From positions 64,001 to 128,000 of IMG/VR virus record IMGVR_UViG_3300037245_001077: a DNA stretch of 64,000 nt, one strand, 5' to 3'. Shown here one piece after another: positions 6,291-24,439 of the stretch. The position numbers were made by a program, and so were the translations under genes. The notes below the pieces were generated by a model. That model was not told where the DNA came from. It saw only the letters and a list, made by a program, of their open reading frames with translations, and did not search any database. Numbering within the stretch: position 1 is the first letter of the stretch; each line of letters starts with the position of its first letter. Source of the stretch: a virus.

Positions 6291-8683
6291 GGTACCTGGA
6301 GATGTGGAGTTGTGCCATGAGTGATTTCAAAGGAACCCTTGTTGTGACTATGCGATTCGACATACCTGTGCGTGCAGGTATGTACCAAACGGTGTTGAAG
6401 GAGAAGGGCGTAGTAACGCCTGACGATATCATTCGCATCGAAGAGCAGAATTACCTGGACAATGCGGACGACTACCTTGAGATCATGGGGGATCATGTGT
6501 CTGAAGTGTCATTTGATTTTCTGCCAGAGTCGAAAGGGGTAAAGCGTGAGTGACGATCTGTTGATTGACGATGATGAGTTGCTACCGGGTGAACTTGCTT
6601 TCACTTCTGCGGATCTCGAACGGCAAATAACAGACTTAACTGCGGTTTTGAAAAGGAAAGACGAGGAAGCCGAGCGTAGCTTGACTCAACTTCAACTCGA
6701 CGCTAACGCTGAGTATAAGCTGATAGTGAAAGAGCGACAGATGATTGAGGAGGAGCTAAATACTCTCAAAACCAACTTTGGGCGGTTAGAGGTAGAGGGC
6801 GAGAATATAAGTCTCGAAGGTAAACAGGTATTTGACCGTCTCGTGGAATTGGATAAAGAACGCATGATTGGGGTTCTGGCTATCCGCTTTCTCGCTCGAC
6901 GGATATCTGATGGTTTGATTTCTGTAGGTGCCTTACCCAATATCGACAAGAATATCTATGTGGCTCTTAGGGCGTGGGCAGAGAAAGCCACACCCCCCTT
7001 CTTTGAGGATGGCTGGCCCGAGGACAAGGCTCTTGGTGAGATACTAATGGAGATGTTTAAGGTTACTGGTACAACAGGTTCATATGCAAACATGTCTGGA
7101 AGGATCCAAGAGCTATTGACAGAGGATGAGAGCGAAGACTTCCAGAAGTACATGGACAAGGTACCGATTATTGACCCTCTTGGTATTACGAGTAAGACGG
7201 CTAGGCTGTACGCGAAGATTTCCCCTGAACTGGCAGGTGTCATACCTAAAGCACAAAGCTGGAAGCCTAGGGGGGCAGATGATATTTGAATGTGCAACTG
7301 ATGGATGTACAACTAAAACAGAGCGTAGAAGCCCTAGGCACAAGTACTGTGATGTATGTGCAACTAAAAGGAAGACCGACTATAATAAGGTTTGGTATGA
7401 AACTATTGGTGCTGAATGGAAGAGGATAAACTACTTAGAGAGCCGAGGGGGTATCCTTGTTACACCTAGAACACCGGAAGCTAAAGAGAAGACTAGACAA
7501 AGAGCTTTGAAAAGACACAGAGAGTACCAACAGCGGCCTGAGGTTAGAGAAAGACGTAAAAAATATGAGCAGCGGGCTAAAGTAGAGGAGCGTAATATTG
7601 GTTTGAGGGCAGAAATTATTGTTCTCCGCAGAGAACGCCGTCTTCAAGAGGAACGTGACGGTGGGAGACGTTTTTTTAGACGAAGAGCTAAAATTAGTGA
7701 GCCATATCTGCCAAAGCACCTTATATGGGGAAAGCCAGAAGAGGATGAAGTATCGTGAGCAAATCACAGGTTAGTAAGGAGCAGGTGGAGCACTTACATA
7801 AGAGTTGGCGCGGTAGGGGTGGGCGCAGTTCTCTGTATAACCTTGCTAAGAGACATGGAATAACCCTCAATGAAGCTTACGTGATTTTGAGTAGTCCCTT
7901 GCACGCTGCCACGAAGAGAGTGGAGATGGGGAAGAAGTTCGTGTCCTACAGGGAGAGATAATGCGAATCAAGGTCAATTGGTTTGTACGCTTCGTGGCTA
8001 AGGTGGCTAGAGTTGATCTTGATAGCTACGCCTGTGAGGACAAGAAGGACAAGAAGAGAGGCAGTGTAGACTTCAGTAAGGTAATGGCACAGCCGTTGCT
8101 ACCTCCCCGGCTTCAGTCAGACCTTAAGAGGATCATAGAGGAACAAGCAGAGCTAGCTGAGAAAATCACGGGGGTTAACCAACCACATACGGGAAGATCA
8201 CTAACGCAGGCTGGACAATGGAATGAAACAACCTTCACGGTTGGTACGGCTGAGGATCCCCAAGAGCTGTTAGAGAACATCTACTGGCCTGTGACTAAGG
8301 GTAATGGCCCTGGTGAGGTTACAGTAGACCCGTTGTCACAGGCGCGTGAGGATGCCCTTGAGGAGATCAATAGGCAGTACGCTATCCCTAAGGAGCTATG
8401 GGATAAGTTCAGGACTGAGGAGCAGATGGGGAAGTACTACCGGGAGCAGTTAGAGGAGTACATCCTTGCTAACGCACAGTCCGATGCCCCTCCACGTACT
8501 ACAGCGAAAGAGTATGCCGAGGTGGTGTATAGAGCCTTACAGAGAATGAGTGGTGTAGAGACTCCTCCCCGGCTTCAGTTCTCCCCCACACAGGACAAGC
8601 TGATAATCAGCCCTCCTCCGCCTGATCTAGAAGATGATTTGGGCGTAGATGGATGCGAGATACCAGAAGAGATGTTTGATTAG

Positions 8684-9010
8684 TATTATGTTATGTATAC
8701 ACATGACATAGTTATTAACTATAGAACTTCTTTGTTTTCAGCCACTTACAAAAAGCCATGTCAGTTTTGTATATAAACGTACTTGCAGTATGTCCAATTT
8801 ACCGAGGTTACCCGGCGTTATAAGGGTATTTTATTACATAAAATGCATTTAATGTTATTATGTGTATGAGTTACAATGATTATAATCTGTAAGTTCTTTA
8901 GAATCAAGAGGTTAAAAAGTAATAAATACTACATTTAAGATACATAAGGTTTATAAGCCCGGATAACCTACATAGTTATCGTTCATTAGATGCTTTTAGT
9001 GCGAATCAAA
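8684..9010. other. AT-rich non-coding region
   Basis: No ORF, clearly more AT-rich than flanks, with degenerate inverted repeats. Confidence 0.6.
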
Positions 9011-9017
9011 AATGAGT

Positions 9018-9091
9018 ACCCCTGTAGCTCAATGGTAGAGCGTGGTCCTTATAAGGCCGTGACCCGAGTTCAACTCTCGGCAGGGGTACCA
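9018..9091 (+). tRNA. tRNA-Ile(TAT)
   Basis: Cloverleaf ACCCCTG/CAGGGGT, anticodon loop CT-TAT-AA, encoded CCA. Confidence 0.9.
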
Positions 9092-9092
9092 C

Positions 9093-9122
9093 TTGACAAC
9101 TTCGATACTTAGGTGGTATCGT
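9093..9122 (+). promoter_or_regulatory. sigma70-type promoter for tmRNA
   Basis: TTGACA-18 nt-TATCGT with TG extension. Confidence 0.55.
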
Positions 9123-9144
9123 GTTCCTAGCTTATACAGCACGA

Positions 9145-9175
9145 GGGAGGAAGGACGCGATGCGACCAACCTCCC
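9145..9175 (+). repeat. Conserved hairpin motif, copy 1
   Basis: GGGAGG-[AAGGACGCGATGCGACCAA]-CCTCCC; loop nearly identical to the copy at 10897. Confidence 0.7.
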
Positions 9176-9195
9176 GCCATGGTCTTTCAAAATAT

Positions 9196-9536
9196 GGGGG
9201 CGCACTGGTTTTGACAGGGATGTTTGACGAGAGGGAGAAGCGTGTCGTGTTTGCTTTCGGCGTTAACGAAGGCTACTCGTTTAGTTGACGAATTTGAACA
9301 ACTACCCTTAGCGGCATAGTTCCGCTAACGTGGTCCTAGAAACTCCACCTATCTGGAGACCACGCTATTAGGTGGGCTGAGGTTTCCGTGCTCCATTTGC
9401 AGAGGAAGGCGTAAAGCTCATGTAGGTTAACTTCCTCATCTTAAAAGTAGGGCTTGCTTGAGCCTATCAAGCTACACACGTAGAAGGCTCTTAGATCCTT
9501 CCTTGGACGTGGGTTCGATTCCCACCGCCTCCACCA
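9196..9536 (+). ncRNA. ssrA: tmRNA, tag (A)DEFEQLPLAA*
   Basis: 5' GGGGGCG pairs with 3' CGCCTCC-ACCA (G3.U70), T-arm GGTTCGATTCC, tag ORF 9287-9319 ending LAA-stop. Confidence 0.95.
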
Positions 9537-9554
9537 ATTTTTTAAGGAGACAAG

Positions 9555-9872
9555 ATGAAGTTAATCACACAAATTCCCGAGGTAGGTATCCTTCCGAATG
9601 GTTTGTGGTGGAAGTATGTCCCCGTAAGGGATGATTTTTTTCATTTCGCTATAGGTTTTTGTTGGCGTTGGGGGAAACCCTACTACGATGAGTTTGATAT
9701 GAAGGAGAAGGACTTCTCCAGAGGGTTTCGCACGTCTTTACGATTGGTGAAAAAAGGTAGAGAGTATCGACTTATTCCTGAGCTTTTCTTTTGGGAAGAA
9801 GGCCAACAGTATGGGACGAAGCAGTGGTTTGATCGTAAGCTTTGGAGAACGACCGAAAAAATATCGGATTAG
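9555..9872 (+). CDS. Hypothetical protein
   Basis: SD AAGGAG, aromatic-rich 105 aa. Confidence 0.6.
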   Translation: MKLITQIPEVGILPNGLWWKYVPVRDDFFHFAIGFCWRWGKPYYDEFDMKEKDFSRGFRTSLRLVKKGREYRLIPELFFWEEGQQYGTKQWFDRKLWRTTEKISD

Positions 9873-9875
9873 GGG

Positions 9876-9904
9876 TTGACAAATCCTAAAACATATCCGA
9901 TACT
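9876..9904 (+). promoter_or_regulatory. sigma70-type promoter for the large ncRNA
   Basis: TTGACA-17 nt-GATACT, followed by boxA-like GATCTTTGACA. Confidence 0.65.
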
Positions 9905-9949
9905 AACTACCTTGCATGTAAATGCAACGATCTTTGACATTCAGGATAT

Positions 9950-10815
9950 GGCCACATGGGGTCATTAAGGAAACAGGGGAGTAATCCCCTGGAAGGGGTA
10001 ACGAGAGTGTTACGCTCGCCCACCTATCTTCGGGTAGGCCCATCCATGAGAATCGCGGGTAGCCCGAGCCACGGGTGGGTACGTGTGCCCTAACCTGAGG
10101 AGCAAGGTGATTGTACGGTGGTGCTAGATAAGGGACAAACCGGGTCTTCGGGCCACAAGGTAGCTCTTATCGATTCCTAGCAGGGATGCTAGGTAATCAT
10201 CGATCCAATTGTGAATCAGGCCACTCCTAAGCGATAGATACCTTAGTCCGAGGAAATGGCAAACCTAGGGCGGGGTAGCAGTACCATTGAGGTTTGGGCG
10301 GAATTCCCAAAAATCAAGAAGTACGGGTAAAGGGACAGCTAGTCTCGAATGCCAGGGCGCGTGTTGTATTTTGTGGCTCAAAAGGCTACGAAGCGATGGA
10401 CAGGGCACGAACCCAGTGACATTATCACCGTGAAATTCGCCTAATAGCAAGGCGTTTGGCCTTAGGACCAAAAGATGAGGGTGCAATTCCTTCATTTCAC
10501 TTCAAAACGATAAGGAAAGTCCCTGTCGGTCGCTAAGCGAAAGGGGCCTAAGCCTCTCCCCGCAAGGGAAGGGAGGCCACCGAAGCTCCCAAGGCTGAAA
10601 GTGGTCAATGTGGAAATGAAGACCTTGAGACGGCCATCTCAGGACGGACTGGAAACATCGAGTCGCGGAGCGATGACGAAGGAAATGCTACCTTCTTAAA
10701 AAAGCGGTCCTGGTCGAATACTGGAGAGATCCGGTGGATAAGTTGTTAACTGAAGGATGGAACCTTAGGGTACGGCAACAAAAGGTTGACCACAATAATG
10801 GGTAGTCTCACCATT
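9950..10815 (+). ncRNA. Large structured ncRNA, probably GOLLD family
   Basis: ~860 nt with no credible ORF, many GNRA/UUCG hairpins, own promoter, tRNA-array context and nested tRNA-like domain. Segments GTGTTGTATTTTGTGGCTCAAAAGG and terminal GTAGTCTCA resemble GOLLD as I recall it. Ends approximate. Confidence 0.7.
10430..10501 (+). ncRNA. tRNA-like domain nested in the large ncRNA
   Basis: Acceptor GTGAAAT/ATTTCAC, D-stem GCCT/AGGC, anticodon stem TTTGG/CCAAA with 8-nt loop CCTTAGGA, T-arm GAGGG-TGCAATT-CCTTC, no CCA. Confidence 0.75.
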
Positions 10816-10896
10816 TTCTTTTATTCTCTACCAGTGGTAGGGAATCTTCAAAGGCTCGGTGGTGCCCGCCTGGACGAAACCACCCTATTTTGTCCC

Positions 10897-10929
10897 TAGC
10901 GGGAAGAACGCGATGCGCCTAACCCGCTA
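10897..10929 (+). repeat. Conserved hairpin motif, copy 2
   Basis: TAGCGGG-[AAGAACGCGATGCGCCTAA]-CCCGCTA. Confidence 0.7.
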
Positions 10930-10946
10930 AATTTTGGTTGTAGTGT

Positions 10947-11021
10947 CGCGGAGTGTAGCAGCGGTAGCTAAGCTGGCTCATAACCAGATGGTCGGGGGTT
11001 CGAATCCCCCCTCCGCAACCA
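10947..11021 (+). tRNA. tRNA-Met(CAT), initiator-like
   Basis: Loop CT-CAT-AA, C1xA72 mismatch, CCA; only two of the three initiator G-C anticodon-stem pairs. Confidence 0.9.
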
Positions 11022-11070
11022 AGTTTAGGGGGTGTTCTTTCACCCCTTTTCTTTATTGTCTGGAGAGAGT

Positions 11071-11223
11071 ATGACCCGCAACGCTTTGATCCAGGCTATT
11101 ATCGAGATGGTTACATCTTCTTTACCCAAGAAGATAACGTTGACCAAGAAGATTGGCAAGGATTTGTGGGTAACGGATACGAAGAGAATGCTCGCCCTTA
11201 TGAAGAAGAAGAGGAAGAAGTAA
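11071..11223 (+). CDS. Basic protein, MTREE-motif family
   Basis: MTRNALIQAIIE start after GGAG; Lys-rich body. Confidence 0.65.
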   Translation: MTRNALIQAIIEMVTSSLPKKITLTKKIGKDLWVTDTKRMLALMKKKRKK

Positions 11224-11224
11224 C

Positions 11225-11590
11225 ATGACCCGCGAAGAGCTTACCGAAGCCATTGTTGAAGCAGTTATCGGTTCGCACGAGGCGGGTGTAGCTATCAATA
11301 CCATGTACAACCAGCATCCAAAGCTCTTTAAGAAAATAAACAAGTGGGAATCAGGGAAACGACGGCGTTTGCAGGTTATGAGAAAATTACGGTTGTCTAA
11401 GGATGACGATTTTGATATTAATGATAAGGCGGTAAGCCACTCTACACGCAAAGCGCATAAGTGGTTGTCTAAACGAAAGAATCCGTTAAATCGGACGTTT
11501 CAGGATCGGGTAAAGGCCGTAACTCGTAAGCCTTCAAAGCAAGTAGCGAAGGACGCGCATTACAATATGCGTTCTAGAATGACTTATTAG
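11225..11590 (+). CDS. Basic protein, MTREE-motif family
   Basis: MTREELTEAIVE then K/R-rich body. Confidence 0.75.
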   Translation: MTREELTEAIVEAVIGSHEAGVAINTMYNQHPKLFKKINKWESGKRRRLQVMRKLRLSKDDDFDINDKAVSHSTRKAHKWLSKRKNPLNRTFQDRVKAVTRKPSKQVAKDAHYNMRSRMTY

Positions 11591-11600
11591 AGGAAATAAC

Positions 11601-11642
11601 ATGTTCGTGACAACGATTAAAACCGAGGAGGAAAAGATCTAG
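11601..11642 (+). CDS. Attenuator leader peptide 1 MFVTTIKTEEEKI
   Basis: SD GAGGA; 10 of 12 non-start codons are Thr/Ile/Lys/Glu, the amino acids of the downstream tRNAs. Confidence 0.85.
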   Translation: MFVTTIKTEEEKI

Positions 11643-11647
11643 GATAG

Positions 11648-11698
11648 CCCTGGACATACCTTCGGTGTATCTCCAGGGACCGTAAGGTCTCTTTTTTT
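11648..11698 (+). terminator. Attenuator 1: antiterminator CCCTGGA/TCCAGGG overlapping terminator GGGACC-GTAA-GGTCTC-T7
   Basis: Both hairpins need GGG 11676-11678. Confidence 0.8.
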
Positions 11699-11708
11699 GT
11701 GTCTATGA

Positions 11709-11782
11709 GCCGGTGTAGCATAATGGCAATGCGCGTCTCTTGTAAAGACGGAGATCCAGTTCAACTCTGGCATCCGGCTCCA
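11709..11782 (+). tRNA. tRNA-Thr(TGT)
   Basis: CGTCT-CT-TGT-AA-AGACG, CCA; slightly irregular acceptor/T junction. Confidence 0.85.
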
Positions 11783-11787
11783 ATATT

Positions 11788-11862
11788 CACCCTGTAGAAC
11801 AATGGTCAGTTTACCGGGCTTTCAACCCGATGATCGGGGTTCAACTCCCCGCAGGGTGACCA
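11788..11862 (+). tRNA. tRNA-Glu(TTC)
   Basis: Loop CT-TTC-AA, CACCCTG/CAGGGTG, CCA. Confidence 0.9.
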
Positions 11863-11866
11863 ACTT

Positions 11867-11942
11867 GGCGGTGTCTGCTAACGGTTAGGCAACATGGTTC
11901 TCACCCATGAAATGGCGGGTTCGATTCCCCCCACCGTCACCA
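11867..11942 (+). tRNA. tRNA-Glu(CTC)
   Basis: CATGG-TT-CTC-AC-CCATG, CCA. Confidence 0.9.
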
Positions 11943-11954
11943 TAGGAGATCAAC

Positions 11955-12107
11955 ATGAACGGCGACCGAAACGACAAGATGTCCGAACTCATGCGAGCAA
12001 TTCGCTGGGGGTGGGACTGTATGTACCCTGTCCGTATCAAGGGTAGTGAGAAACGTCGTTTGCGTCGAAAATACCGTCACGATGCTAAACGTGAGATAGC
12101 CCTGTAG
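11955..12107 (+). CDS. 50-aa basic ORF inside tRNA operon 1
   Basis: SD AGGAG; MNGDRNDKMSELMRAIRWGWDC...; stop codon lies inside the 5' end of tRNA-Ile. Confidence 0.5.
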   Translation: MNGDRNDKMSELMRAIRWGWDCMYPVRIKGSEKRRLRRKYRHDAKREIAL

Positions 12108-12172
12108 CTCAGTGGTAGAGCAGAGGGTCGATAACCCTCGTGTCCGTGGTTCGAATCCACGTGGGGCTACCA
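12098..12172 (+). tRNA. tRNA-Ile(GAT)
   Basis: GAGGG-TC-GAT-AA-CCCTC, CCA. Confidence 0.92.
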
Positions 12173-12179
12173 TTTACAC

Positions 12180-12255
12180 ACCCCCATGACGCAACTGGCA
12201 GCGTAGCTGGCTCTTAACCAGTATGTTGAAGGTTCGACTCCTTCTGGGGGTACCA
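12180..12255 (+). tRNA. tRNA-Lys(CTT)
   Basis: Loop CT-CTT-AA, CCA. Confidence 0.92.
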
Positions 12256-12258
12256 TGT

Positions 12259-12333
12259 GGGATCGTGGCGCAATGGAAGCGCAACAGGCTTTTAACCTGA
12301 ATGTTGAGAGTTCGAGTCTCTCCGGTCCCACCA
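12259..12333 (+). tRNA. tRNA-Lys(TTT)
   Basis: Loop CT-TTT-AA, CCA. Confidence 0.92.
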
Positions 12334-12365
12334 CCTTCTTCCTTCTTTATTTCTTGGGAGATGCT

Positions 12366-12599
12366 ATGACCCGAGAAGAACTTATTGAAGCCATTGTTGA
12401 AGTGATGCAGCGAAGTAAACATCCTCTAACGGGTGGTCATTTCAGTTTTCCTCCTCCTATGAAAACAAGAGCAGGGCAGTGGACAAGACGGAAGCGTTTG
12501 AGGGTTGTTTCTGGTGCTATGACAGGTAAAGACCCTAGCATAACGAAATCTATGGCTTTTGCTTCTGAAATAGCTCGAAGAAAACGAGCAAACAAATAG
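12366..12599 (+). CDS. Basic protein, MTREE-motif family
   Basis: MTREELIEAIVE; start re-assigned to 12366 (SD GGGAG). Confidence 0.75.
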   Translation: MTREELIEAIVEVMQRSKHPLTGGHFSFPPPMKTRAGQWTRRKRLRVVSGAMTGKDPSITKSMAFASEIARRKRANK

Positions 12600-12610
12600 A
12601 GGATTAAAAT

Positions 12611-12844
12611 ATGACCCGTGAAGAGATTATTGAAGCCATTATCCTTACTGAGTTCGAGCCTTTGACTATGATTGCTGCTGGTGCGGCTACTGGTTACGCG
12701 GCTAGAAAGTTGAGAAACCGTTATAGCGTTAAAGGAGCCACAGGTGCGGCTAAGAGAAGTTCGGCTATCTCGAAGGCATATGCGAAGAAGGCTGAGCGGC
12801 ATACCGCAAGGGCAAAGTTCCTTACTGCTAGAAAGAACGCATAA
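12611..12844 (+). CDS. Basic protein, MTREE-motif family
   Basis: MTREEIIEAIILTE, Ala/Gly segment, basic tail. Confidence 0.75.
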   Translation: MTREEIIEAIILTEFEPLTMIAAGAATGYAARKLRNRYSVKGATGAAKRSSAISKAYAKKAERHTARAKFLTARKNA

Positions 12845-13944
12845 TGACCCGAGATAAGATTATTGAAGATATTGTTGAAGGCTACGTCAAAGATGTGCTC
12901 ACTTACGATTTGAGTAAGCATCATCCTAGACCCCATGAGCGCTTCCGCTTCAACAACGCAGCCCGTAAAGCCAAAGAGAAGGCACGGGAAGTGTTTAGGA
13001 ACAAAGCCAAGAGCGCACATGATACTCAACCTATTGACGTTTCCAAGTTTGTATCCAAATCTACAGCTCGTAGGGCACCGGGGATCAAAGTCCCCAAAAG
13101 CTATCGCCCTAAACTTAAGATGAGTTCAGCTAGGCGAAAGGGTCCAACCGTTCGCCAACAGCAGGGCAGAAAAGCAGTGTTGGGTGCAGCGGCAGCTATT
13201 GGTGCGGGTATGGTGGCTCATAAGGCGTACAAGTACCATAAGGCCAAAAAGAAAAGAGAGATGCGTGAAGGCTTGATTGAGGCCCTTTCTACTCATAAGG
13301 TCTACAAGGCTAGGATGTTTTCAAAGAAGCCACAATCTTATGCTAAAACAATGACTTATTGGCAAACTCCAGAACAGAAGAGTTTAAAAGCTGTTAAGAA
13401 AAAGATTCCCGTGGTTTCTTTAGAGTTAAGGAGTAAAAAGGATAAGTCTACCCATCAGGTGTCGCTTGCTCCAGATCCTCGTAAGAGGCTTTGGGGGAAA
13501 TTGGCAAAGATGCAGGGGTTTGACCCTAAATCAAAGAAAGCAACGCTTAAACGACGGGCGTTTTATCGTTTGCGTAAGAACAAGTACAAGGTTGTTGAGG
13601 GTGACCTAGGGGACTTCGCTGTAGCCCCAACCGCAGCCGTAGACGCTTCCCCGATCCATAAAGAGCAGAGGGATCGGTATTGGATGATCAAGAACCGTAA
13701 GAAGATCAAGAACATGATAGTGAAAGAGGTTTTTGACGACACCTATGGTTCGAGCGTGCTTGACCGAGCAGCACGGGTGGAAAAATCTACAAACTTTATT
13801 GCTAAGGCGAAAAAGCTTAAAAGCCTTGTTGGTAAGGCGAGAAAGCTTACTAAGGATTATGAGCTTGGTATGTACCACGGTGCGGGCAAAATGTCTAAGA
13901 TGAATATCTCTTTGGGTAACAAAAAATTTGGGAAGATAGGGTAG
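12844..13944 (+). CDS. Long basic protein, MTREE-motif family
   Basis: MTRDKIIEDIVE plus internal MREGLIEAL. Confidence 0.75.
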   Translation: MTRDKIIEDIVEGYVKDVLTYDLSKHHPRPHERFRFNNAARKAKEKAREVFRNKAKSAHDTQPIDVSKFVSKSTARRAPGIKVPKSYRPKLKMSSARRKGPTVRQQQGRKAVLGAAAAIGAGMVAHKAYKYHKAKKKREMREGLIEALSTHKVYKARMFSKKPQSYAKTMTYWQTPEQKSLKAVKKKIPVVSLELRSKKDKSTHQVSLAPDPRKRLWGKLAKMQGFDPKSKKATLKRRAFYRLRKNKYKVVEGDLGDFAVAPTAAVDASPIHKEQRDRYWMIKNRKKIKNMIVKEVFDDTYGSSVLDRAARVEKSTNFIAKAKKLKSLVGKARKLTKDYELGMYHGAGKMSKMNISLGNKKFGKIG

Positions 13945-13952
13945 GGGTTAAC

Positions 13953-14225
13953 ATGACACGCGAAGAAGTGATTGAAGCCATTGTATACGAGATGACGCAA
14001 GAGAAAAAAGATAAGTGGAAGTCTCGTGCCAAGAAAACTGCAATCGGGGCTGGTATAATTGGAGTAGGTGTTCTTGCTACGAAAGCTCCTAAAGCTAAGC
14101 GTTATCATGCTTTAGGTAAAAAGGTGTCTTCTACGGTGGATAGTAGCGCTTACAGACAAGCTTTGGTTTCTAAGAACAAATATGGATTGCATGTTGACAA
14201 ATACTATGGTTCTTCTTCTTTTTAA
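13953..14225 (+). CDS. Basic protein, MTREE-motif family
   Basis: MTREEVIEAIVYE. Confidence 0.75.
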   Translation: MTREEVIEAIVYEMTQEKKDKWKSRAKKTAIGAGIIGVGVLATKAPKAKRYHALGKKVSSTVDSSAYRQALVSKNKYGLHVDKYYGSSSF

Positions 14226-14228
14226 GGC

Positions 14229-14257
14229 TTGACAACGGTAACAAAAGATGCCATACT
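14229..14257 (+). promoter_or_regulatory. sigma70-type promoter of tRNA operon 2
   Basis: TTGACA-17 nt-CATACT with TG extension. Confidence 0.75.
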
Positions 14258-14266
14258 AAATCAGTA

Positions 14267-14326
14267 ATGAAGAATTTTCTATATACCCTCGTTGATTGTG
14301 TAGCCCACTTTGATAGTTGGCTTTAG
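14267..14326 (+). CDS. Attenuator leader peptide 2 MKNFLYTLVDCVAHFDSWL
   Basis: Contains all 8 amino acids (D,L,A,H,C,Y,F,V) of the downstream tRNAs; ATG 9 nt after the -10 box. Confidence 0.85.
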   Translation: MKNFLYTLVDCVAHFDSWL

Positions 14327-14377
14327 GGGGGTTTTTGTCTTTTCGTCTTTGACACCCCCTGCACAAGGGGGTTTTTT
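14325..14377 (+). terminator. Attenuator 2: antiterminator AGGGGG..TGTC/GACACCCCCT versus terminator ACCCCCT-GCACA-AGGGGGT-T5
   Basis: The C-run 14355-14359 can pair with either G-run. Confidence 0.8.
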
Positions 14378-14384
14378 AGTATTC

Positions 14385-14461
14385 GGGGGTGTAGTCTAGT
14401 AGAGTAAGGCCCTGGATTGTCAGTCCAGTGATCGCCGGTTCGAGTCCGGTCACTCCCGCCA
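14385..14461 (+). tRNA. tRNA-Asp(GTC)
   Basis: CTGGA-TT-GTC-AG-TCCAG, G73, CCA. Confidence 0.92.
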
Positions 14462-14481
14462 AGTTCTTTGAAAATTAGTGT

Positions 14482-14566
14482 GCTGAGGTGGCGAAGTTGG
14501 TAGACGCGCTGGTCTTAGGAACCAGTGTCTTCGGGCGTGTGGGTTCGAATCCCTCCCTCAGCACCA
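14482..14566 (+). tRNA. tRNA-Leu(TAG)
   Basis: CTGGT-CT-TAG-GA-ACCAG, long variable arm, CCA. Confidence 0.92.
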
Positions 14567-14577
14567 AAATATCGTGT

Positions 14578-14653
14578 GGGCTGTCATGTTCCAAGGGGGC
14601 GAGGAGCACTTGCAATGCACCTGTGGAGGGTTCGATTCCCTTGCGGTCCACCA
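14578..14653 (+). tRNA. tRNA-Ala(TGC)
   Basis: Loop CT-TGC-AA, G3.U70, atypical D arm, CCA. Confidence 0.85.
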
Positions 14654-14657
14654 AGTT

Positions 14658-14731
14658 GTGAGGGTAGTGTAATGGCAGCACGAGAGTTTGTGGCACTCTC
14701 AGAGCGGATTCAAATTCCGTCCCTCACCCCA
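14658..14731 (+). tRNA. tRNA-His(GTG)
   Basis: AGAGT-TT-GTG-GC-ACTCT, C73, CCA; G-1 not encoded. Confidence 0.88.
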
Positions 14732-14811
14732 GTTTCGGTTTTGGGGGTCCGACACAGTGTTACAAGCTACCTCAGAGGTAGTTCAAGGGCACTCTACAAA
14801 ATCCCCATTTG

Positions 14812-14885
14812 AGGGTGGTGGCCGAGAGGCTAGGCAGGGGACTGCAAATCCTTTTACGCGGGTTCAAATCCCGCCCACCTTTCCA
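14812..14885 (+). tRNA. tRNA-Cys(GCA)
   Basis: Loop CT-GCA-AA, U73, CCA. Confidence 0.92.
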
Positions 14886-14886
14886 T

Positions 14887-14972
14887 GCCAGTATAGACCT
14901 CTATGGAGGGGGGACGGGTTGTAGCCCCGTTGTTGCAAGGCCCGCAAGGTTCGATTCCTTGTACTGGCACCA
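14887..14972 (+). tRNA. tRNA-Tyr(GTA)
   Basis: ACGGG-TT-GTA-GC-CCCGT, long variable arm, CCA. Confidence 0.88.
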
Positions 14973-14975
14973 TTT

Positions 14976-15051
14976 GCCTCTGTAGCTCAGGTAGTAGAGC
15001 GCGAGACTGAAGATCTCGGCGTCGGGGGTGCAAGTCCTCCTGGGGGCACCA
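14976..15051 (+). tRNA. tRNA-Phe(GAA)
   Basis: CGAGA-CT-GAA-GA-TCTCG, CCA. Confidence 0.9.
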
Positions 15052-15054
15052 TTT

Positions 15055-15130
15055 AGGCAGGTAGCTCAGTTGGTAGAGTTGCTGGTTTACACCCAGTCTG
15101 TCATCGGTTCGAATCCGGTCCTGCCTACCA
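15055..15130 (+). tRNA. tRNA-Val(TAC)
   Basis: Loop TT-TAC-AC, CCA. Confidence 0.92.
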
Positions 15131-15192
15131 TTCACTTTATTGTTTGGGGTATGTATGTTTCGTGAAGATTATTTTATAAAACGGGATAAAAT

Positions 15193-16068
15193 ATGACGGA
15201 TAGAAATTTAGATTATGACTATGCTGCAAAGCAACGAGATATTACTCGTGAGCAGTATGCTAAAGGAACATATATTTATGCTGGTTATAGTCCTGCAACA
15301 CCTTTAGTGTGGAATGTTGAGGATCAGCCGATTGGCTCAGGTGCTCCGGCAAACGTGTTTGACGCCTGGGGCGAGGACTTGGAGGTCCGGGCGATCCCTG
15401 TGGATGGGAAAGAGCCGCTGACGCCGTTCACCAAGGAGCTTCATGCAAAAACAGGGAACCCTGGATATCTCTATGGGCTGTACTTCACATTATTGCTCGA
15501 TGGTTTTGATATTGATTTGAATAATGGTAAATTCCGGGTTGAAATTGTGGCTCGGCATGTTGTCCCAGATCCAGAATTTCAGCCCGGTCAATACTTACAG
15601 CTTGGTGAGGACGACTATTACCCAGAATGGGATACGTGGCGCATGTTCAAAGCCGGGTTTCTTTCTGAAGAGTCCGGCGAAAGTGATGTTCAATCTTGGC
15701 ATTGGGAGTTTGGTGGTGAACTATATAATTCGTTCTATGACTACAAGGTAAACTGGGAGTTCGGAACACCAATTGTCGGATACACTATCCACCAGATCGA
15801 GGTGGATTTCCAAGCTGGCGTGTTCGAGCAACGCATCGTTGGTCATTGGGCAGGAGATCAAGGAGAGCAATCATCTTGGTGGGTTAAGGCTCCTCGCGCC
15901 GCTGAATTTCCGGCTGGAGAACAGTCAGCACAGACGCTCATATTATGGCTTCAAGATAAAAACAGCGGAGAGGCGATGGTTACTCAGCTTTGGCTTGGCC
16001 CAATTACTGACCCATTCCCAAATGGCGCGGTTTTGACATCGAATATCGGGTTTGGAAATAGTTCTTGA
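15193..16068 (+). CDS. Hypothetical aromatic-rich protein (possible virion/lectin-like)
   Basis: 291-aa ORF between tRNA operons, W/Y/F-rich. Confidence 0.6.
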   Translation: MTDRNLDYDYAAKQRDITREQYAKGTYIYAGYSPATPLVWNVEDQPIGSGAPANVFDAWGEDLEVRAIPVDGKEPLTPFTKELHAKTGNPGYLYGLYFTLLLDGFDIDLNNGKFRVEIVARHVVPDPEFQPGQYLQLGEDDYYPEWDTWRMFKAGFLSEESGESDVQSWHWEFGGELYNSFYDYKVNWEFGTPIVGYTIHQIEVDFQAGVFEQRIVGHWAGDQGEQSSWWVKAPRAAEFPAGEQSAQTLILWLQDKNSGEAMVTQLWLGPITDPFPNGAVLTSNIGFGNSS

Positions 16069-16093
16069 CAAGCCCTTTATTGGGTGTTAGAGT
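16065..16093 (+). promoter_or_regulatory. sigma70-type promoter of tRNA operon 3
   Basis: TTGACA-17 nt-TAGAGT with TG extension. Confidence 0.75.
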
Positions 16094-16102
16094 GATTAAG
16101 TT

Positions 16103-16171
16103 ATGAAGAGATTATCCTCAAGGTTGTGGCAACAGAGCGGCTCGAATCCGAGTCGCCCAGGAGAGCTGTAA
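16103..16171 (+). CDS. Attenuator leader peptide 3 MKRLSSRLWQQSGSNPSRPGEL
   Basis: Has a codon readable by each of the 12 downstream tRNAs; all 21 non-start sense codons differ. Confidence 0.9.
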   Translation: MKRLSSRLWQQSGSNPSRPGEL

Positions 16172-16236
16172 CTAAGGGGTAAAGATGCCAATTCGCCCGT
16201 TCCGTTCTTACCCCCTAGTACAGTAGGGGGTTTTTT
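16172..16236 (+). terminator. Attenuator 3: antiterminator CTAAGGGGTAAAGA/TCTTACCCCCTAG versus terminator ACCCCCTA-GTACAG-TAGGGGGT-T5
   Basis: Shared C-run 16211-16215. Confidence 0.85.
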
Positions 16237-16246
16237 ATTGATCTAA

Positions 16247-16258
16247 GTTCTTTGAAAA
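16247..16258 (+). promoter_or_regulatory. boxA-like antitermination site
   Basis: GTTCTTTGAAAA; identical copy at 14463-14474. Confidence 0.6.
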
Positions 16259-16271
16259 CAAAAAGTTATGT

Positions 16272-16348
16272 CCGAGAATGGCGCAGTTTGGCAGCGCACT
16301 TGGTTTGGGACCAAGGTGTCGAAGGTTCAAATCCTTCTTCTCGGACCA
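16272..16348 (+). tRNA. tRNA-Pro(TGG)
   Basis: CTTGG-TT-TGG-GA-CCAAG, CCA. Confidence 0.92.
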
Positions 16349-16349
16349 T

Positions 16350-16434
16350 GGAAGGTACCGTCTATGGAGACAAGCGGTTTTGAACACCGTAGGCACGTGT
16401 AAGCGCGGGGGTTCGATTCCTCTACCTTCCTCCA
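16350..16434 (+). tRNA. tRNA-Ser(TGA)
   Basis: Loop TT-TGA-AC, long variable arm, CCA. Confidence 0.88.
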
Positions 16435-16444
16435 AGTTGTGTGT

Positions 16445-16519
16445 TCGGGCATGGTGTTAGTGGTAGCATACGAGGTTTCCACCCTCTGGGGCCGGGTTCG
16501 AGTCCTGGTGCCCGAACCA
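16445..16519 (+). tRNA. tRNA-Gly(TCC)
   Basis: Loop TT-TCC-AC, CCA. Confidence 0.88.
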
Positions 16520-16529
16520 AAATTTATGT

Positions 16530-16603
16530 AGGGGTATAGTGAAATGGTATCACGGCAGATTCCAGACCTGCTTTTCCGGGTTCAAATCCTGGTACCTCTG
16601 CCA
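16530..16603 (+). tRNA. tRNA-Trp(CCA)
   Basis: Loop TT-CCA-GA, G73, CCA. Confidence 0.88.
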
Positions 16604-16609
16604 AAGATT

Positions 16610-16698
16610 GGAAGGGTGGCTGAGTGGTAACAGCGCCGGGTTGCTAACCCGAGGCCGCGCTTCGGCGTGCGAGGGTTCGATCCCCTCTCCTTCCTCCA
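16610..16698 (+). tRNA. tRNA-Ser(GCT)
   Basis: Loop TT-GCT-AA, long variable arm, CCA. Confidence 0.92.
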
Positions 16699-16704
16699 AG
16701 TGTT

Positions 16705-16808
16705 GAACGGTGTGGCGTGGCAGCGTCAGGTTTTCCGTTAAGGAGATCATCCCTCCACTGCCTAATCGGAGAATGATGGGAGCTGGGTGGGGAATCCAGC
16801 CACCGTTC
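16705..16808 (+). ncRNA. Putative ~105-nt structured RNA of unknown class
   Basis: Closed by GAACGGTG/CACCGTTC, occupies a slot between two tRNAs. Confidence 0.5.
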
Positions 16809-16818
16809 ACTTTTTTGA

Positions 16819-16895
16819 GGCCCTGTAGCTCAGCGAACAGAGCATATGGCTACGAACCATAGTTGTCGGGGGTTTGAATCCCTCCAGGGCTTCCA
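16819..16895 (+). tRNA. tRNA-Arg(ACG)
   Basis: TATGG-CT-ACG-AA-CCATA, CCA. Confidence 0.92.
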
Positions 16896-16898
16896 TTT

Positions 16899-16974
16899 GC
16901 ACCCGTGGTCTAATGGCAAAGGCACTGCGTTTCTACCGCAGCAGATGTGGGTTCGACTCCTACCGGGTGTTCCA
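16899..16974 (+). tRNA. tRNA-Arg(TCT)
   Basis: CTGCG-TT-TCT-AC-CGCAG, CCA. Confidence 0.92.
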
Positions 16975-16984
16975 AAACTTATTC

Positions 16985-17063
16985 GGCACGGTAGCTTAGC
17001 ATGGCCTAAAGCAGTAGTTTGTTAAACTAATGATCGTAGGTTCAAATCCTACCTGTGCCGCCA
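16985..17063 (+). tRNA. tRNA-Asn(GTT)
   Basis: Loop TT-GTT-AA, G73, CCA. Confidence 0.9.
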
Positions 17064-17069
17064 AATTTT

Positions 17070-17156
17070 GCTGGAGTGGCTGGAATTGGTATACGCAGGG
17101 GACTTAAAATCCCTGGCCGAAAGGTCGTGTGGGTTCGACTCCCACCTCCAGCACCA
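17070..17156 (+). tRNA. tRNA-Leu(TAA)
   Basis: Loop CT-TAA-AA, long variable arm, CCA. Confidence 0.92.
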
Positions 17157-17161
17157 GCTAT

Positions 17162-17238
17162 GCCGCTCTGGGCCAATTGGTAGAGTCGGGGGTCTCAAAA
17201 GCCCTTTGTTCCGAGTTCGAATCTCGGGGGCGGCACCA
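17162..17238 (+). tRNA. tRNA-Leu(CAA), short variable loop
   Basis: Loop CT-CAA-AA, A73, CCA, only a 5-nt variable region. Confidence 0.85.
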
Positions 17239-17241
17239 TTT

Positions 17242-17317
17242 AGCGGAGTAGCTCAATTGGTAGAGCACTGGACTCTGAATTCAGTTGTTGTAGGTTCAAA
17301 CCCTACCTCCGCTGCCA
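17242..17317 (+). tRNA. tRNA-Gln(CTG)
   Basis: Loop CT-CTG-AA, CCA. Confidence 0.92.
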
Positions 17318-17392
17318 TTTTGATTGCAGAAACTGACACTTTTTGGTAGGTTACGCGAATGAAAAGCACTGTTTGTGGTCATAATGACTACT

Positions 17393-17468
17393 AGGGGAGT
17401 AGCTCAATTGGTGGAGCAACAGGCTTTGAACCTGTTGGATGTGAGTTCGAACCTCACCTCCCCTTCCA
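17393..17468 (+). tRNA. tRNA-Gln(TTG)
   Basis: ACAGG-CT-TTG-AA-CCTGT, CCA. Confidence 0.92.
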
Positions 17469-17693
17469 TGTATACTTTATTGAAGGCCATGTGTGCTATG
17501 GACACTTTTATCGTTTTGCTAATTGGGGTTGTCGCTTTGATAGCGATTGCTATGGGGTTGAGTGACCGATACTCTCCTCCTTGTCCGAAATGTGGAAAGG
17601 GTCTTAAGATTCTAGGAGCAGACTATCTATGTATCTCGTGTGACAGGGTTTACTCAGAGGATGAAATTCCAACTTAGTTGTGGCTGCAAAGGC

Positions 17694-17722
17694 TTGACAA
17701 ACAACCCTACACCATCTATGAT
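17694..17722 (+). promoter_or_regulatory. sigma70-type promoter
   Basis: TTGACA-17 nt-TATGAT. Confidence 0.75.
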
Positions 17723-17810
17723 TCTAGTGCTATGACAACTGGAATTCTTCACCAATCTATTCATTTGCCCGCCTCTTTAGGTGGGCCTTGCTGTTTAAGG
17801 AGGAAAAACA

Positions 17811-18194
17811 ATGAAGTTGTATGTTTTGTTTGAGCAACCGGATGAAACGTATCCGGGGCAGTATGCGCCGTTAGCCGTTACGGTACTCGATGAGTACACT
17901 GTGGATAATTCCGGAAGATCGCTTCACGAGGCTCAGGAGGCAGAACTTGCTCGTCTTTCTATGAAGGAAGGGTTTGATCCTACAGATGCTAAGTGGGCCT
18001 GGGTTGAGGTGGATCTTGGTGTGACTGAACAGTTGATCCGAGATGCTATTCTTCAGCCTGCCCTCGCTGTCCAAGGTGTAGTAGCAGTTCCGGCTGCTCC
18101 TCAAGGGCAGAAACACCCTTCTTATCAGGCCATTACCGTGACTAGAGGAAGGCCAGGAGCAGGAAGAATTGTTGACGATGAAATTGTGGAGTAA
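17811..18194 (+). CDS. Hypothetical protein
   Basis: Strong SD TAAGGAGG. Confidence 0.7.
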   Translation: MKLYVLFEQPDETYPGQYAPLAVTVLDEYTVDNSGRSLHEAQEAELARLSMKEGFDPTDAKWAWVEVDLGVTEQLIRDAILQPALAVQGVVAVPAAPQGQKHPSYQAITVTRGRPGAGRIVDDEIVE

Positions 18195-22300: not shown

Positions 22301-22336
22301 CTTGACACCCTACATTATAAGAGTATGATAAGATTC

Positions 22337-24439
22337 ATGAAGAATGTTGTTGTTCTTGCTGTTCCGGTTCTAGCATTAACTTTGATAATTGCAGCCTTCA
22401 GTTGTGGAGGGAACGGTACACCTCCCCCTAACGCAACGAAGACACCTACAGCTATCATTTCACCGACTGCTACTGCAATCCCTCCGACCGAAACCCCTGT
22501 GCCACAGCCTATTCCTGAGCTTATCCCTCCTTTTCCGAAGGTGATGGGAATGGTTCAGCTTGGAGATATGGCAGATCCTCTTGACACTAATACCTATAAC
22601 TTCCAGTCGAATGCGGAGACTGCTAATCAGCTATTGGCAAACGGATTTCAAGCTATCCAAATTTGGCCGCACGAGAGAGTTATGTCCCAAGATGTAGGGT
22701 TAGTTATCTGCAATCCAGGTATCAAGGTTATTGCTATTCGTCCACTGGCTCGTGTGTCTATGGATTCAGGTACTTGTATAGAGGGTACGCAGAATCCAAC
22801 TTGGGAGAATGCTGACTTTGGTCAGATTGCGTATGATCTTCTTGAGCAGTATGGAGATCTATCGTGCCGAGGTGGAGAACCCTTGGATATCATCTTGAAT
22901 AACTGGGAGATCGACTGGCAGTACAAAGGACCGTTTTGCCGAGAAGCTACTCCTACTCCTTATCGTTATCAAAAAGTTACTGAGATGTTGAAGACTCGTC
23001 AGATGGGGGTTGAGTGGGCAAGATCGGTCTTTCCTGATGCCTTATTGAGAGTCCTCCATGGTATTGTGGTTAACCATCATGAAGCAACTTACGCCTTTAG
23101 TTTTAGCCGAGATGTGTTGCCAGGGCTTATTGCTGATGGGTATGGACCACACGTTATTGGTATCTCTTTCTATACTAAGCAGTGGACTTTCACACAGGTT
23201 GTAGAGGTTCTCAAACTTCGTACAGGGTACCCGGTAAGCCGGATGTATGTTGCTGAGCATGGTGAAAATGAGAAGTGGCCTGGAAGACAGCGCGGTAGAT
23301 TTGAGCAAACGCTTCCTCGCATGGATGCTGCGGGTATCCGTGTTGTTTTCATGTGGACATGGAAGCAATTTTGGCCGGGAAGTATAGCAGAGGATGGTTC
23401 CCGTACTGGTGGGTGGCATGGTTTATGGGAAGTTGACGAGAATTTGGGACTTCCAATCCAGCGTAGTTTTACAGGTAGATGGACTTCAGGTTTACGTTTT
23501 GTTCAAGAGTTCAGAATGCGCTTTGACGAGCCACCACTACCTGCTATAACGCCACCAGTAGGAAATACGCCGGTACCTAGTCCGACACCACCAGGAGGAG
23601 GAGCTACACCTACGCCTACACCCACGTCTGTCCCCCCTACTGAGACGCCTAAGCCACCTCCAACAGGGACGCCTATGCCACCTACACCAACGTTTGTACC
23701 CCCTACTGAGACGCCCGTAGATACTCCTACTCCTCCAGTAGCTACTGAGACTCCTATCCCACCACCAGTCTACACATTTACTCCTACTCCTGATCCTTGT
23801 GCAGATTGTCCTATACCTGGGACTATTTGGTGTGATATGTACCCCGAGGTGTGTGCTCAGTGTTGGGAAGACTGTGGTCAGCCGATGAGTACTCCTACTC
23901 CTGGGCCTCCAACTAATACTCCTACTAAGACGCCTACTCCTGGGGCACCAACACCTACTCCTACTTCTGTACCGGAAGATTGTGATGGCTGCCCGCTACC
24001 TGGGACGCTGTGGTGCGAGATGGCACCGGACGCTTGCTATCAGTGCTGGGAAGACTGTGGTGAACCGCTACCTACACGTACTCCTACGCCAATCCCTACT
24101 ATTACACCAACGCCTACTCCTCCTTGGTCAAATAATCCAACGTTTTCAGTATACCCAGACGCTACTCCAACACATTGTGTGTGGGTTTTCACGCATGATG
24201 AGTCTGGTACTGTTATTTCTGAAGAAGTTGCTCTCTGTGCGGACATGAACCAGACGTTTGGCTTAGAGGGTTGGTGGACTATAGAGATAATGACACATTA
24301 TAATCATGGGGCTGTAGGGATTCAGACTGAGCCGAATGGCGATAAGCATGGAGACCTTGATGGTGACGGTATGTACGAGTATTGGCATAGTCAACCGTTA
24401 GAAGTCTTACCCAAACCGGCTGTTCCTATTTTCATTTAG
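22337..24439 (+). CDS. Exported (lipo)protein with putative glycoside-hydrolase-like domain, Pro/Thr linkers and two Cys-rich repeats
   Basis: Signal peptide ending AFS-C, NNWE and VAEHG motifs, PT repeats; promoter TTGACA/TATGAT at 22302-22329 favours ATG 22337. Confidence 0.6.
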   Translation: MKNVVVLAVPVLALTLIIAAFSCGGNGTPPPNATKTPTAIISPTATAIPPTETPVPQPIPELIPPFPKVMGMVQLGDMADPLDTNTYNFQSNAETANQLLANGFQAIQIWPHERVMSQDVGLVICNPGIKVIAIRPLARVSMDSGTCIEGTQNPTWENADFGQIAYDLLEQYGDLSCRGGEPLDIILNNWEIDWQYKGPFCREATPTPYRYQKVTEMLKTRQMGVEWARSVFPDALLRVLHGIVVNHHEATYAFSFSRDVLPGLIADGYGPHVIGISFYTKQWTFTQVVEVLKLRTGYPVSRMYVAEHGENEKWPGRQRGRFEQTLPRMDAAGIRVVFMWTWKQFWPGSIAEDGSRTGGWHGLWEVDENLGLPIQRSFTGRWTSGLRFVQEFRMRFDEPPLPAITPPVGNTPVPSPTPPGGGATPTPTPTSVPPTETPKPPPTGTPMPPTPTFVPPTETPVDTPTPPVATETPIPPPVYTFTPTPDPCADCPIPGTIWCDMYPEVCAQCWEDCGQPMSTPTPGPPTNTPTKTPTPGAPTPTPTSVPEDCDGCPLPGTLWCEMAPDACYQCWEDCGEPLPTRTPTPIPTITPTPTPPWSNNPTFSVYPDATPTHCVWVFTHDESGTVISEEVALCADMNQTFGLEGWWTIEIMTHYNHGAVGIQTEPNGDKHGDLDGDGMYEYWHSQPLEVLPKPAVPIFI

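Follow-up and report, generated by a model that had tools for sequence, protein, structure and literature searches.

Short leader ORFs matching the codons read by adjacent tRNA operons point to probable ribosome-mediated attenuation of tRNA genes in a phage

The DNA analysed here, hereafter referred to as the window, comprises 64,000 nucleotides (nt) of a virus genome (bases 64001-128000 of the 176,533-base-pair (bp) single-contig IMG/VR record IMGVR_UViG_3300037245_001077, 47.8% G+C). ARAGORN, run with default thresholds, identifies 27 tRNA genes and one transfer-messenger RNA (tmRNA) gene, all of which are located on the plus strand within positions 9018-17468. Three clusters contain 6, 7 and 12 of these tRNA genes (Table 1), and each cluster is preceded by a short open reading frame (ORF) of 13, 19 or 22 codons, respectively, which lies 58-100 nt 5' of the first tRNA and is followed by a pair of overlapping hairpins. 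The first-pass annotation of the window had counted 6, 8 and 12 tRNA genes. This is correct for the first and the third cluster, while the eighth gene of the second one, a tRNA-Ala(TGC), is detected only when the ARAGORN threshold is relaxed and is missed when positions 8500-18000 are searched with Rfam cmscan at E<=0.1. Based on the features of the ORFs and hairpins described in the following, we propose that the three tRNA operons are probably controlled by ribosome-mediated leader-peptide attenuation, in which decoding speed would be sensed at the very codons that are read by the tRNAs of the operon itself.

Table 1. Positions of the leader ORFs, candidate regulatory elements and tRNA operons of the three units in the window.
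Feature	Position	Strand	Description
Shine-Dalgarno sequence of leader 1	11590..11594	+	GAGGA, identified by sequence inspection
Leader ORF L1	11601..11642	+	MFVTTIKTEEEKI; 12 sense codons after the ATG, 10 of which are read by the operon-1 tRNAs for Thr, Glu (two), Ile-GAT and Lys (two)
Antiterminator hairpin 1	11648..11678	+	5' arm CCCTGGA 5 nt past the stop; 3' arm TCCAGGG, with AGGG common to the terminator
Intrinsic terminator 1	11675..11692 (11699 with T run)	+	7-bp stem, GTAA loop; ends 10 nt before tRNA-Thr
tRNA operon 1	11709..12333	+	Thr-TGT, Glu-TTC, Glu-CTC, embedded ORF 11955-12107, Ile-GAT, Lys-CTT, Lys-TTT
Promoter, unit 2	14229..14257	+	TTGACA, 17 nt, TG-CATACT
Leader ORF L2	14267..14326	+	MKNFLYTLVDCVAHFDSWL; 18 sense codons, 12 of which are read by operon-2 tRNAs (13 with the weak tRNA-Ala)
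Antiterminator 2	14326..14360	+	ACCCCCT (terminator 5' arm) paired with the G run fused to the stop codon
Intrinsic terminator 2	14354..14372 (14378 with T run)	+	ends 7 nt before tRNA-Asp
tRNA operon 2	14385..15130	+	Asp, Leu-TAG, weak tRNA-Ala(TGC) 14578-14653, His, Cys, Tyr, Phe, Val-TAC
Promoter, unit 3	16065..16093	+	TTGACA, 17 nt, TG-TAGAGT
Leader ORF L3	16103..16171	+	MKRLSSRLWQQSGSNPSRPGEL; 21 sense codons, all different, 18 of which are read by operon-3 tRNAs
Antiterminator 3	16176..16214	+	GGGGTAA:TTACCCC, overlaps the 5' arm of the terminator
Intrinsic terminator 3	16210..16231 (16237 with T run)	+	8-bp stem
tRNA operon 3	16272..17468	+	Pro, Ser-TGA, Gly, Trp, Ser-GCT, Arg-ACG, Arg-TCT, Asn, Leu-TAA, Leu-CAA, Gln-CTG, Gln-TTG

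The codon content of each ORF follows the tRNA content of the operon downstream. When strict wobble rules are applied, 9 of the 12 codons in L1, 9 of 18 in L2 and 16 of 21 in L3 are read by tRNAs of the own operon; if four-codon boxes are counted as matches, these numbers become 10/12, 12/18 and 18/21, which reproduces the values given in the first-pass annotation (where 13/18 for L2 includes the weak tRNA-Ala). At the strict level, coverage of the operons is complete (6/6, 7/7 and 12/12), that is, all 25 confidently called tRNAs find a codon in their own leader. The earlier statement that this is so for 26 tRNAs hence stands for 25 of them, the remaining one being the weak tRNA-Ala call. Scoring match and coverage jointly in a Monte Carlo comparison with random codons drawn from the long ORFs of this genome, a test against genome codon usage that the first-pass annotation had proposed, yields p values of 2e-5 (L1), 1.7e-4 (L2) and <5e-6 (L3). 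Moreover, a scan that was blind to the finding and considered all ORFs of 6-45 codons within 300 nt upstream of the clusters returned exactly L1, L2 and L3 as the best of 4-7 candidates per cluster. Among 1450 small ATG-initiated ORFs in the entire genome, L1 and L3 rank first for the tRNA sets of operons 1 and 3, respectively, L2 ranks third for that of operon 2, and L3 is one of only three which cover all 12 tRNAs of its set.

Matches are, furthermore, partitioned by operon: L1 has 10, 2 and 0 codons matching operons 1, 2 and 3, respectively, L2 has 2, 12 and 3, and L3 has 2, 1 and 18. The true assignment of leaders to operons thus scores 40, whereas no other permutation (likewise suggested as a check in the first-pass annotation) exceeds 22. 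Such a partition is expected if a leader acts in cis as a sensor for its own operon, and is not expected from general codon optimisation or from selection that favours fast translation and nothing else. The leaders contain neither ATA nor internal ATG codons, as had also been pointed out; this is correct, but too few codons are concerned for the observation to carry much weight.

Each ORF is embedded in what has the layout of an attenuator. In all three units, the leader stop codon is separated by 0-5 nt from the 5' arm of the antiterminator; the 3' arm of this hairpin shares bases with the 5' arm of a canonical intrinsic terminator with a GC-rich stem followed by 6-7 T. The first tRNA begins just 7-35 nt past the T run; given this short gap and the lack of a usable promoter, tRNA expression requires read-through. 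The sole promoter-like site 3' of the terminators that came into consideration as a separate tRNA promoter (16252-16279) runs into tRNA-Pro and was thus rejected. The overlapping antiterminator and terminator hairpins reported in the first-pass annotation were accordingly found in three out of three units, and the likeness to the geometry of the trp, his and ilv attenuators, which it had pointed out, extends in triplicate to the short ORF, the antiterminator placed next to its stop codon and the terminator.

Units 2 and 3 start with a TTGACA-17-(TG)NANNNT promoter of the sigma-70 type, in which 9 nt separate the end of the -10 element from the leader ATG, so that their mRNAs would be nearly leaderless. 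Since the two units have promoter and terminator cores in common and differ in their leaders, they look like diverged duplicates in which each leader has followed its own operon. No promoter-like site of its own was found for unit 1, which follows the stop codon of an ORF at 11225-11590. Elsewhere, TTGACA promoters are found with 6-7 nt between the -10 element and the ATG of 700-codon and 195-codon genes, and the apparent start of a 704-amino-acid gene at 22302-24439 lies 7 nt after the -10 element of a TTGACA-16-TATGAT promoter, which suggests that leaderless or nearly leaderless starts are used in this phage, large genes included. A third promoter with 17-nt spacing (TTGACA-17-TATGAT), followed by an ATG 10 nt after the -10 element, the same distance as in units 2 and 3, heads a 33-codon ORF at 17694-17833. 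This ORF contains a terminator-like hairpin (17767-17786), overlaps the start of the gene at 17811-18194, and may represent another translated leader, one unrelated to tRNAs. Within L3, an 8-bp tetraloop hairpin is located at 16140-16159 (codons Ser-Gly-Ser-Asn-Pro-Ser-Arg), which is similar in sequence to the T arm of a tRNA and could serve as a polymerase pause hairpin.

The consequences of ribosome position were modelled in two ways. In a snapshot model, a ribosome footprint of ~30 nt was masked at each position of the A site and the RNA was folded as it would exist before the 3' arm of the terminator is made. The antiterminator is then predicted to hold the terminator 5' arm (P 0.6-0.94) until the A site comes to lie on the stop codon or on one of the final 1-4 codons. 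The effect at the stop is clearest for unit 2, where P drops to 0.01-0.37 at the last codons and the stop; the corresponding values for unit 1 are 0.05 at the last sense codon and 0.44 at the stop, and those for unit 3 are confounded by base pairs spanning the ribosome. In an equilibrium model, the probability of the terminator was computed for the full attenuator. For unit 1 it is 0.97 without a ribosome, 0.94 with a ribosome at the stop and 0.05-0.17 for stalls at codons 4-6, and for unit 3 the respective values are 0.81, 0.97 and 0.13-0.21 (stalls at codons 7-12). Base pairing between the spacer and the terminator arm exceeds that in shuffled sequences for units 2 (2/500) and 3 (10/500), and the hairpin region of unit 1 taken as a whole has z = -2.5. 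In minimum-energy folds of the full length, segments within the leader also pair with the antiterminator region; like the hairpin inside L3, these pairings are candidates for an element that would synchronise ribosome and polymerase. The 5' arm of the terminator is 27-38 nt away from the leader stop and is thus out of reach of the footprint of a ribosome residing there, whereas the antiterminator arm (0-5 nt) is within reach, which fixes the polarity of the device. Taken together, the thermodynamic modelling supports the view that a ribosome at the leader end can mask the antiterminator and that one stalled earlier cannot. Folding with a masked footprint thereby reproduces the logic outlined in the first-pass annotation (termination with the ribosome at the stop, read-through upon an earlier stall), although the additional proposal of a gate that responds to every listed codon is upheld only in part, since the response in the folding model is not uniform across codons.

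The mechanism that we envisage would then operate as follows. RNA polymerase would start at the sigma-70-type promoter (units 2 and 3) or enter from upstream genes (unit 1), and a ribosome would translate the leader of 13-22 codons while the RNA is still being synthesised; both leader translation and its coupling to transcription are inferred. If decoding is fast, the ribosome would reach the last codons or the stop and cover the 5' arm of the antiterminator, so that the terminator would form and transcription would cease before the first tRNA. If, in turn, any of the codons read by the operon's own tRNAs is decoded slowly, the lagging ribosome would leave the antiterminator free to hold the 5' arm of the terminator, and the whole operon would be transcribed. 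With the switch acting in this direction, and with the availability of the operon's own tRNAs as the presumed input, the outcome would be a supply of tRNA driven by demand, subject to negative feedback by the tRNAs produced. The distribution of those leader codons which do not match the operon is consistent with such a scheme: they cluster at codons 2-3 and at the last 2-3 positions (AGT and TGG in L2; GAG and CTG in L3), with p values of 0.15, 0.008 and 0.008 for units 1, 2 and 3, respectively, for a definition of the edges that was made post hoc. A ribosome stalled at these leader ends would itself mask the antiterminator, so that a stall there could not act as a signal.

Several observations weigh against this interpretation. 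When the peptides are kept fixed and synonymous codons are resampled, the probability that all tRNAs are covered is 0.017; hence, most of the signal resides in the amino-acid composition, to which the choice of codons adds only a modest part, and the match at the level of isoacceptors that was emphasised in the first-pass annotation receives moderate support only. For most tRNAs, the leaders list just one or two codons instead of runs, and sensitivity to any single tRNA may thus be low. Without loading of a ribosome, the snapshot model predicts read-through, which leaves the basal state uncertain. In the equilibrium model, the terminator of unit 2 beats the antiterminator, with its loop of ~20 nt, at most stall positions, and this unit would therefore have to act kinetically, as the trp attenuator likewise does. 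For unit 1, pairing of the terminator arm is, by the measure used, not above that in composition-matched shuffles. Finally, no close relative of the phage was found that carries the tRNA region and in which co-variation of the hairpins could be followed.

The latter result was obtained with several queries. Searches of phage records with the tRNA region by megablast and blastn gave scattered tRNA matches only. A gene of 291 amino acids located between operons 2 and 3 has no relatives in IMG/VR or phage records; two metagenomic homologues of it are encoded, respectively, on a contig of 1.2 kilobases (kb) and in a tail-gene context without tRNAs. Neither the 704-amino-acid downstream gene nor the 5' motif shared by a group of paralogous small ORFs (described below) retrieved a relative. 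One further record represents the same phage at 99.97% identity, and relatives of the portal protein with 65-80% identity reside on contigs devoid of tRNAs and of homologues of the flanking genes.

We therefore applied the same leader-scoring pipeline to other tRNA-rich phages. In the uncultured huge phage LR745206.1 (634 kb), a leader followed by a terminator with a GC-rich stem and a T run precedes each of the five multi-tRNA clusters between 342 and 408 kb. The cores of these leaders match their own clusters (His/Lys/Phe/Ser/Trp; Tyr/Glu; Ile/Gly; Thr/Met/Asn/Leu/Val/Ile/Arg; Pro/Gln/Asp), and the true assignment of leaders to clusters is the single best of 120 permutations. In four of the five units, the end of the matched core falls on the codon from which the footprint would mask the antiterminator, the terminator of the fifth unit having been mis-detected by the script. 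The LR745206.1 units also exhibit similar AT-rich upstream motifs and CCCAGT...ACTGGG terminators. A partial counterpart is present in two cultured Xanthomonas jumbo phages: in XacN1, a leader rich in Lys and Tyr (7/12 codons, p 5e-6; 1429-1470 of the stretch examined) precedes a Lys-Lys-Tyr cluster, and Xoo-sp13 retains the Lys/Tyr-rich leader (1517-1561 of the stretch examined) before such a cluster and behind a TTGACA-17-TAAAT promoter. No T-run terminator was found downstream of the leader in either XacN1 or Xoo-sp13, and this case may work differently. The other 11 of the 12 XacN1 clusters lack a match. The remaining phages gave no convincing leader: none of the ORFs at the 10 clusters of Atu_ph07 falls below p ~0.03, the best p is 0.0065 for the 25 clusters of RsoM2USA and ~0.001 (for a single Met tRNA) for the 37 clusters of LR756511.1, and the one cluster of Flavobacterium phage immuto has none. 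Since no p value below 1e-3 is thus seen in 84 control clusters (the other 11 of XacN1 and all of those scored in Atu_ph07, RsoM2USA, LR756511.1 and immuto), the pipeline is specific, and the device is not universal in tRNA-rich phages. Leaders that follow tRNA content, for which the first-pass annotation had proposed to search in related phages, are seen in the five units of LR745206.1 and in part in XacN1 and Xoo-sp13.

How else might the sequences be explained? The same hardware could respond to amino-acid supply, via tRNA charging, or to the overall rate of elongation, and would then constitute a switch for starvation or translation stress without any audit of the tRNA pool. That most of the signal lies at the amino-acid level, with synonymous choice adding no more than the p of 0.017 given above, is in line with this idea, as is the fact that leader-peptide attenuators of the trp and his type read charged tRNA. 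However, additional tRNA does not relieve amino-acid starvation, so that the output would not fit the input. Moreover, isoacceptors are each represented in the leaders (both Lys, both Glu and both Gln codons, AGR as well as CGY for Arg, TCN as well as AGY for Ser), CTN and TTR codons for Leu are split between operons, and the use of 21 different codons in L3 has a probability of only 0.006 when synonymous codons are resampled. We thus regard sensing of amino-acid supply as unlikely. It is quite improbable, in our assessment, that translation of the short ORFs acts instead on the processing or stability of the tRNA precursors (through access of RNases or 5' maturation), with the hairpins being processing signals. 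The Lys/Tyr-rich leaders of XacN1 and Xoo-sp13, which stand before a tRNA cluster without a T-run terminator in between, and a hairpin in Xoo-sp13 that takes in the 5' end of the first tRNA would fit such a role, but canonical intrinsic terminators are present in all three units of the window, and all five units of LR745206.1 end in terminators as well.

Even less probable is direct recognition, in which an untranslated leader RNA would bind tRNAs by codon-anticodon pairing in the manner of a T-box with multiple specifiers. While codons complementary to the operon anticodons are, by definition, present, the matching triplets all fall into a single frame that runs from an ATG at a fixed distance from the promoter to a stop 0-5 nt before the antiterminator, no bulge for binding of an acceptor end is apparent, and neither a T-box nor any other riboswitch was matched in the Rfam cmscan at E<=0.1. 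To plain coincidence, that is, unrelated small ORFs or spurious frames beside ordinary terminators, we attribute practically no chance: short ORFs are common, as the 1450 in this genome attest, yet the per-unit p values were obtained with just 4-7 candidates each, the leaders rank at the top genome-wide, and the pattern recurs in the unrelated LR745206.1 with the controls being clean. Attenuation responding to the operon's own tRNAs hence remains the interpretation that we favour.

As a class, ribosome-mediated attenuation is well known. The multivalent attenuators of enterobacteria likewise combine a short translated leader rich in regulatory codons with mutually exclusive antiterminator and terminator hairpins, between which the position of the ribosome decides, and a single leader can respond to several amino acids; examples are thrL (Thr/Ile) and the ilvGMEDA leader (Ile/Val/Leu), along with trpL, hisL, pheL and leuL. 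In contrast to these, the phage units would control tRNA genes instead of biosynthetic enzymes, sample up to 12 tRNAs (8 amino acids) by mostly single, non-repeated codons instead of runs, have a product that feeds back directly on the decoding of its own leader, and are phage-borne. The cmscan of positions 8500-18000 at E<=0.1 matched neither the Rfam leader families (Thr_leader, His_leader, Leu_leader, Trp_leader and others) nor the T-box, and yielded only tRNA, tmRNA and GOLLD RNA along with weak chance matches. The pheM leader of E. coli pheST also provides ribosome-mediated attenuation of a component of the translation machinery, but it has a single input (Phe codons) and a protein-coding output, is not a tRNA operon and is not phage-borne. 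In T-box riboswitches, the choice between antiterminator and terminator equally ties tRNA status to translation-related genes; these, however, regulate genes for synthetases or amino acids by themselves binding a single uncharged tRNA, with no translation involved. Control of bacterial tRNA and rRNA operons at the promoter (stringent and growth-rate control) also fits tRNA synthesis to demand, but is global and exerted at initiation via guanosine tetraphosphate (ppGpp), DksA and Fis, with neither codon specificity nor a leader ORF or attenuator.

A precedent for a sensing ORF that is the first cistron of a leaderless or nearly leaderless transcript is provided by short polycysteine ORFs of mycobacteria, which are reported to act as Cys-responsive attenuators (bioRxiv 10.1101/834739). 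They differ from the phage units in that they reportedly sense one amino acid and control Cys-related protein genes. Our full-text search of open-access papers and preprints retrieved no description of attenuation of tRNA genes, the one co-occurrence of the subjects being unrelated; this agrees with the first-pass annotation, whose author was not aware of a description for tRNA genes or phages, although an account in a subscription journal may exist. LR745206.1 presumably belongs to the collection of a huge-phage paper, and that paper mentions neither leaders nor attenuators nor terminators. There thus appears to be no earlier description of this known class of mechanism being applied to tRNA genes, of its checklist-like leaders or of the phage setting.

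The surroundings of the three units contain further elements. A T4-type portal (Pfam Portal_T4) is encoded in the window away from the tRNA region, and its nearest cultured relatives, from Flavobacterium phage immuto and Microcystis phage Mel-JY01, exhibit only ~28-29% identity. No Pfam or PHROG family was matched by the proteins flanking the tRNA region. The tmRNA (9196-9536) encodes the tag peptide DEFEQLPLAA and is accompanied by a promoter-like TTGACA-18-TATCGT site at 9093-9122. Between it and tRNA-Met lies a full-length GOLLD RNA (Rfam RF02032, 161.5 bits) at 10354-10814, in which a tRNA-like element is embedded at 10430-10501 to which ARAGORN assigns no anticodon. The ORF within operon 1, between Glu-CTC and Ile-GAT, encodes a basic peptide of 50 amino acids and has a good Shine-Dalgarno sequence. 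Six small ORFs (starts at 11072, 11225, 12367, 12611, 12844 and 13953; 11072-14225 in total) interleave with the tRNA operons and share near-identical N termini, MTRxE-L/I-IEAIVE, which are conserved in the DNA as well; they match no family, and their shared motif has no match in IMG/VR. The sequence CTTTATT(G/T) occurs ~5-30 nt 3' of each tRNA cluster (11051, 12345, 15135 and 17475) and, after tRNA-Met, operon 1 and operon 2, is followed by a GG-rich ribosome-binding site and an ATG. Of its five exact matches in the window, three are at such post-cluster positions, and it may represent a phage promoter or a processing signal. Spacers of 75-120 nt in operons 2 and 3 (14732-14811, 16699-16818 and 17318-17392) gave no tRNA or Rfam call; at relaxed settings only, 16707-16808 is called as an intron-containing tRNA-Gly(CCC).

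The usual view of phage tRNA genes is that they are constitutive helpers in codon usage or act as decoys for defences that cleave tRNAs, and, to our knowledge, essentially nothing is known about the control of their expression. If the proposed mechanism is correct, phages would set their tRNA supply by demand, and leader-peptide attenuation would extend from amino-acid metabolism to the tRNAs themselves, with up to a dozen tRNAs being sampled in ~20 codons, and the splitting of tRNA genes into particular blocks would be explained. The sequence signature may also help to locate, in uncultured phages, those tRNA operons that are expressed and the promoters that drive them, and the leaders could provide synthetic biology with natural multi-input sensors of translation speed. 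We put forward only tentatively, and with considerable doubt, that such codon-checklist attenuators might be a widespread means by which phages monitor the tRNA pool of the host codon by codon and supply replacement tRNAs only when particular tRNAs of the host are absent, scarce or have been destroyed, as anticodon nucleases acting in defence might do. Should this turn out to be true, the device would constitute an inducible circuit for both counter-defence and codon adaptation, with a feedback loop that is closed by the tRNAs produced.

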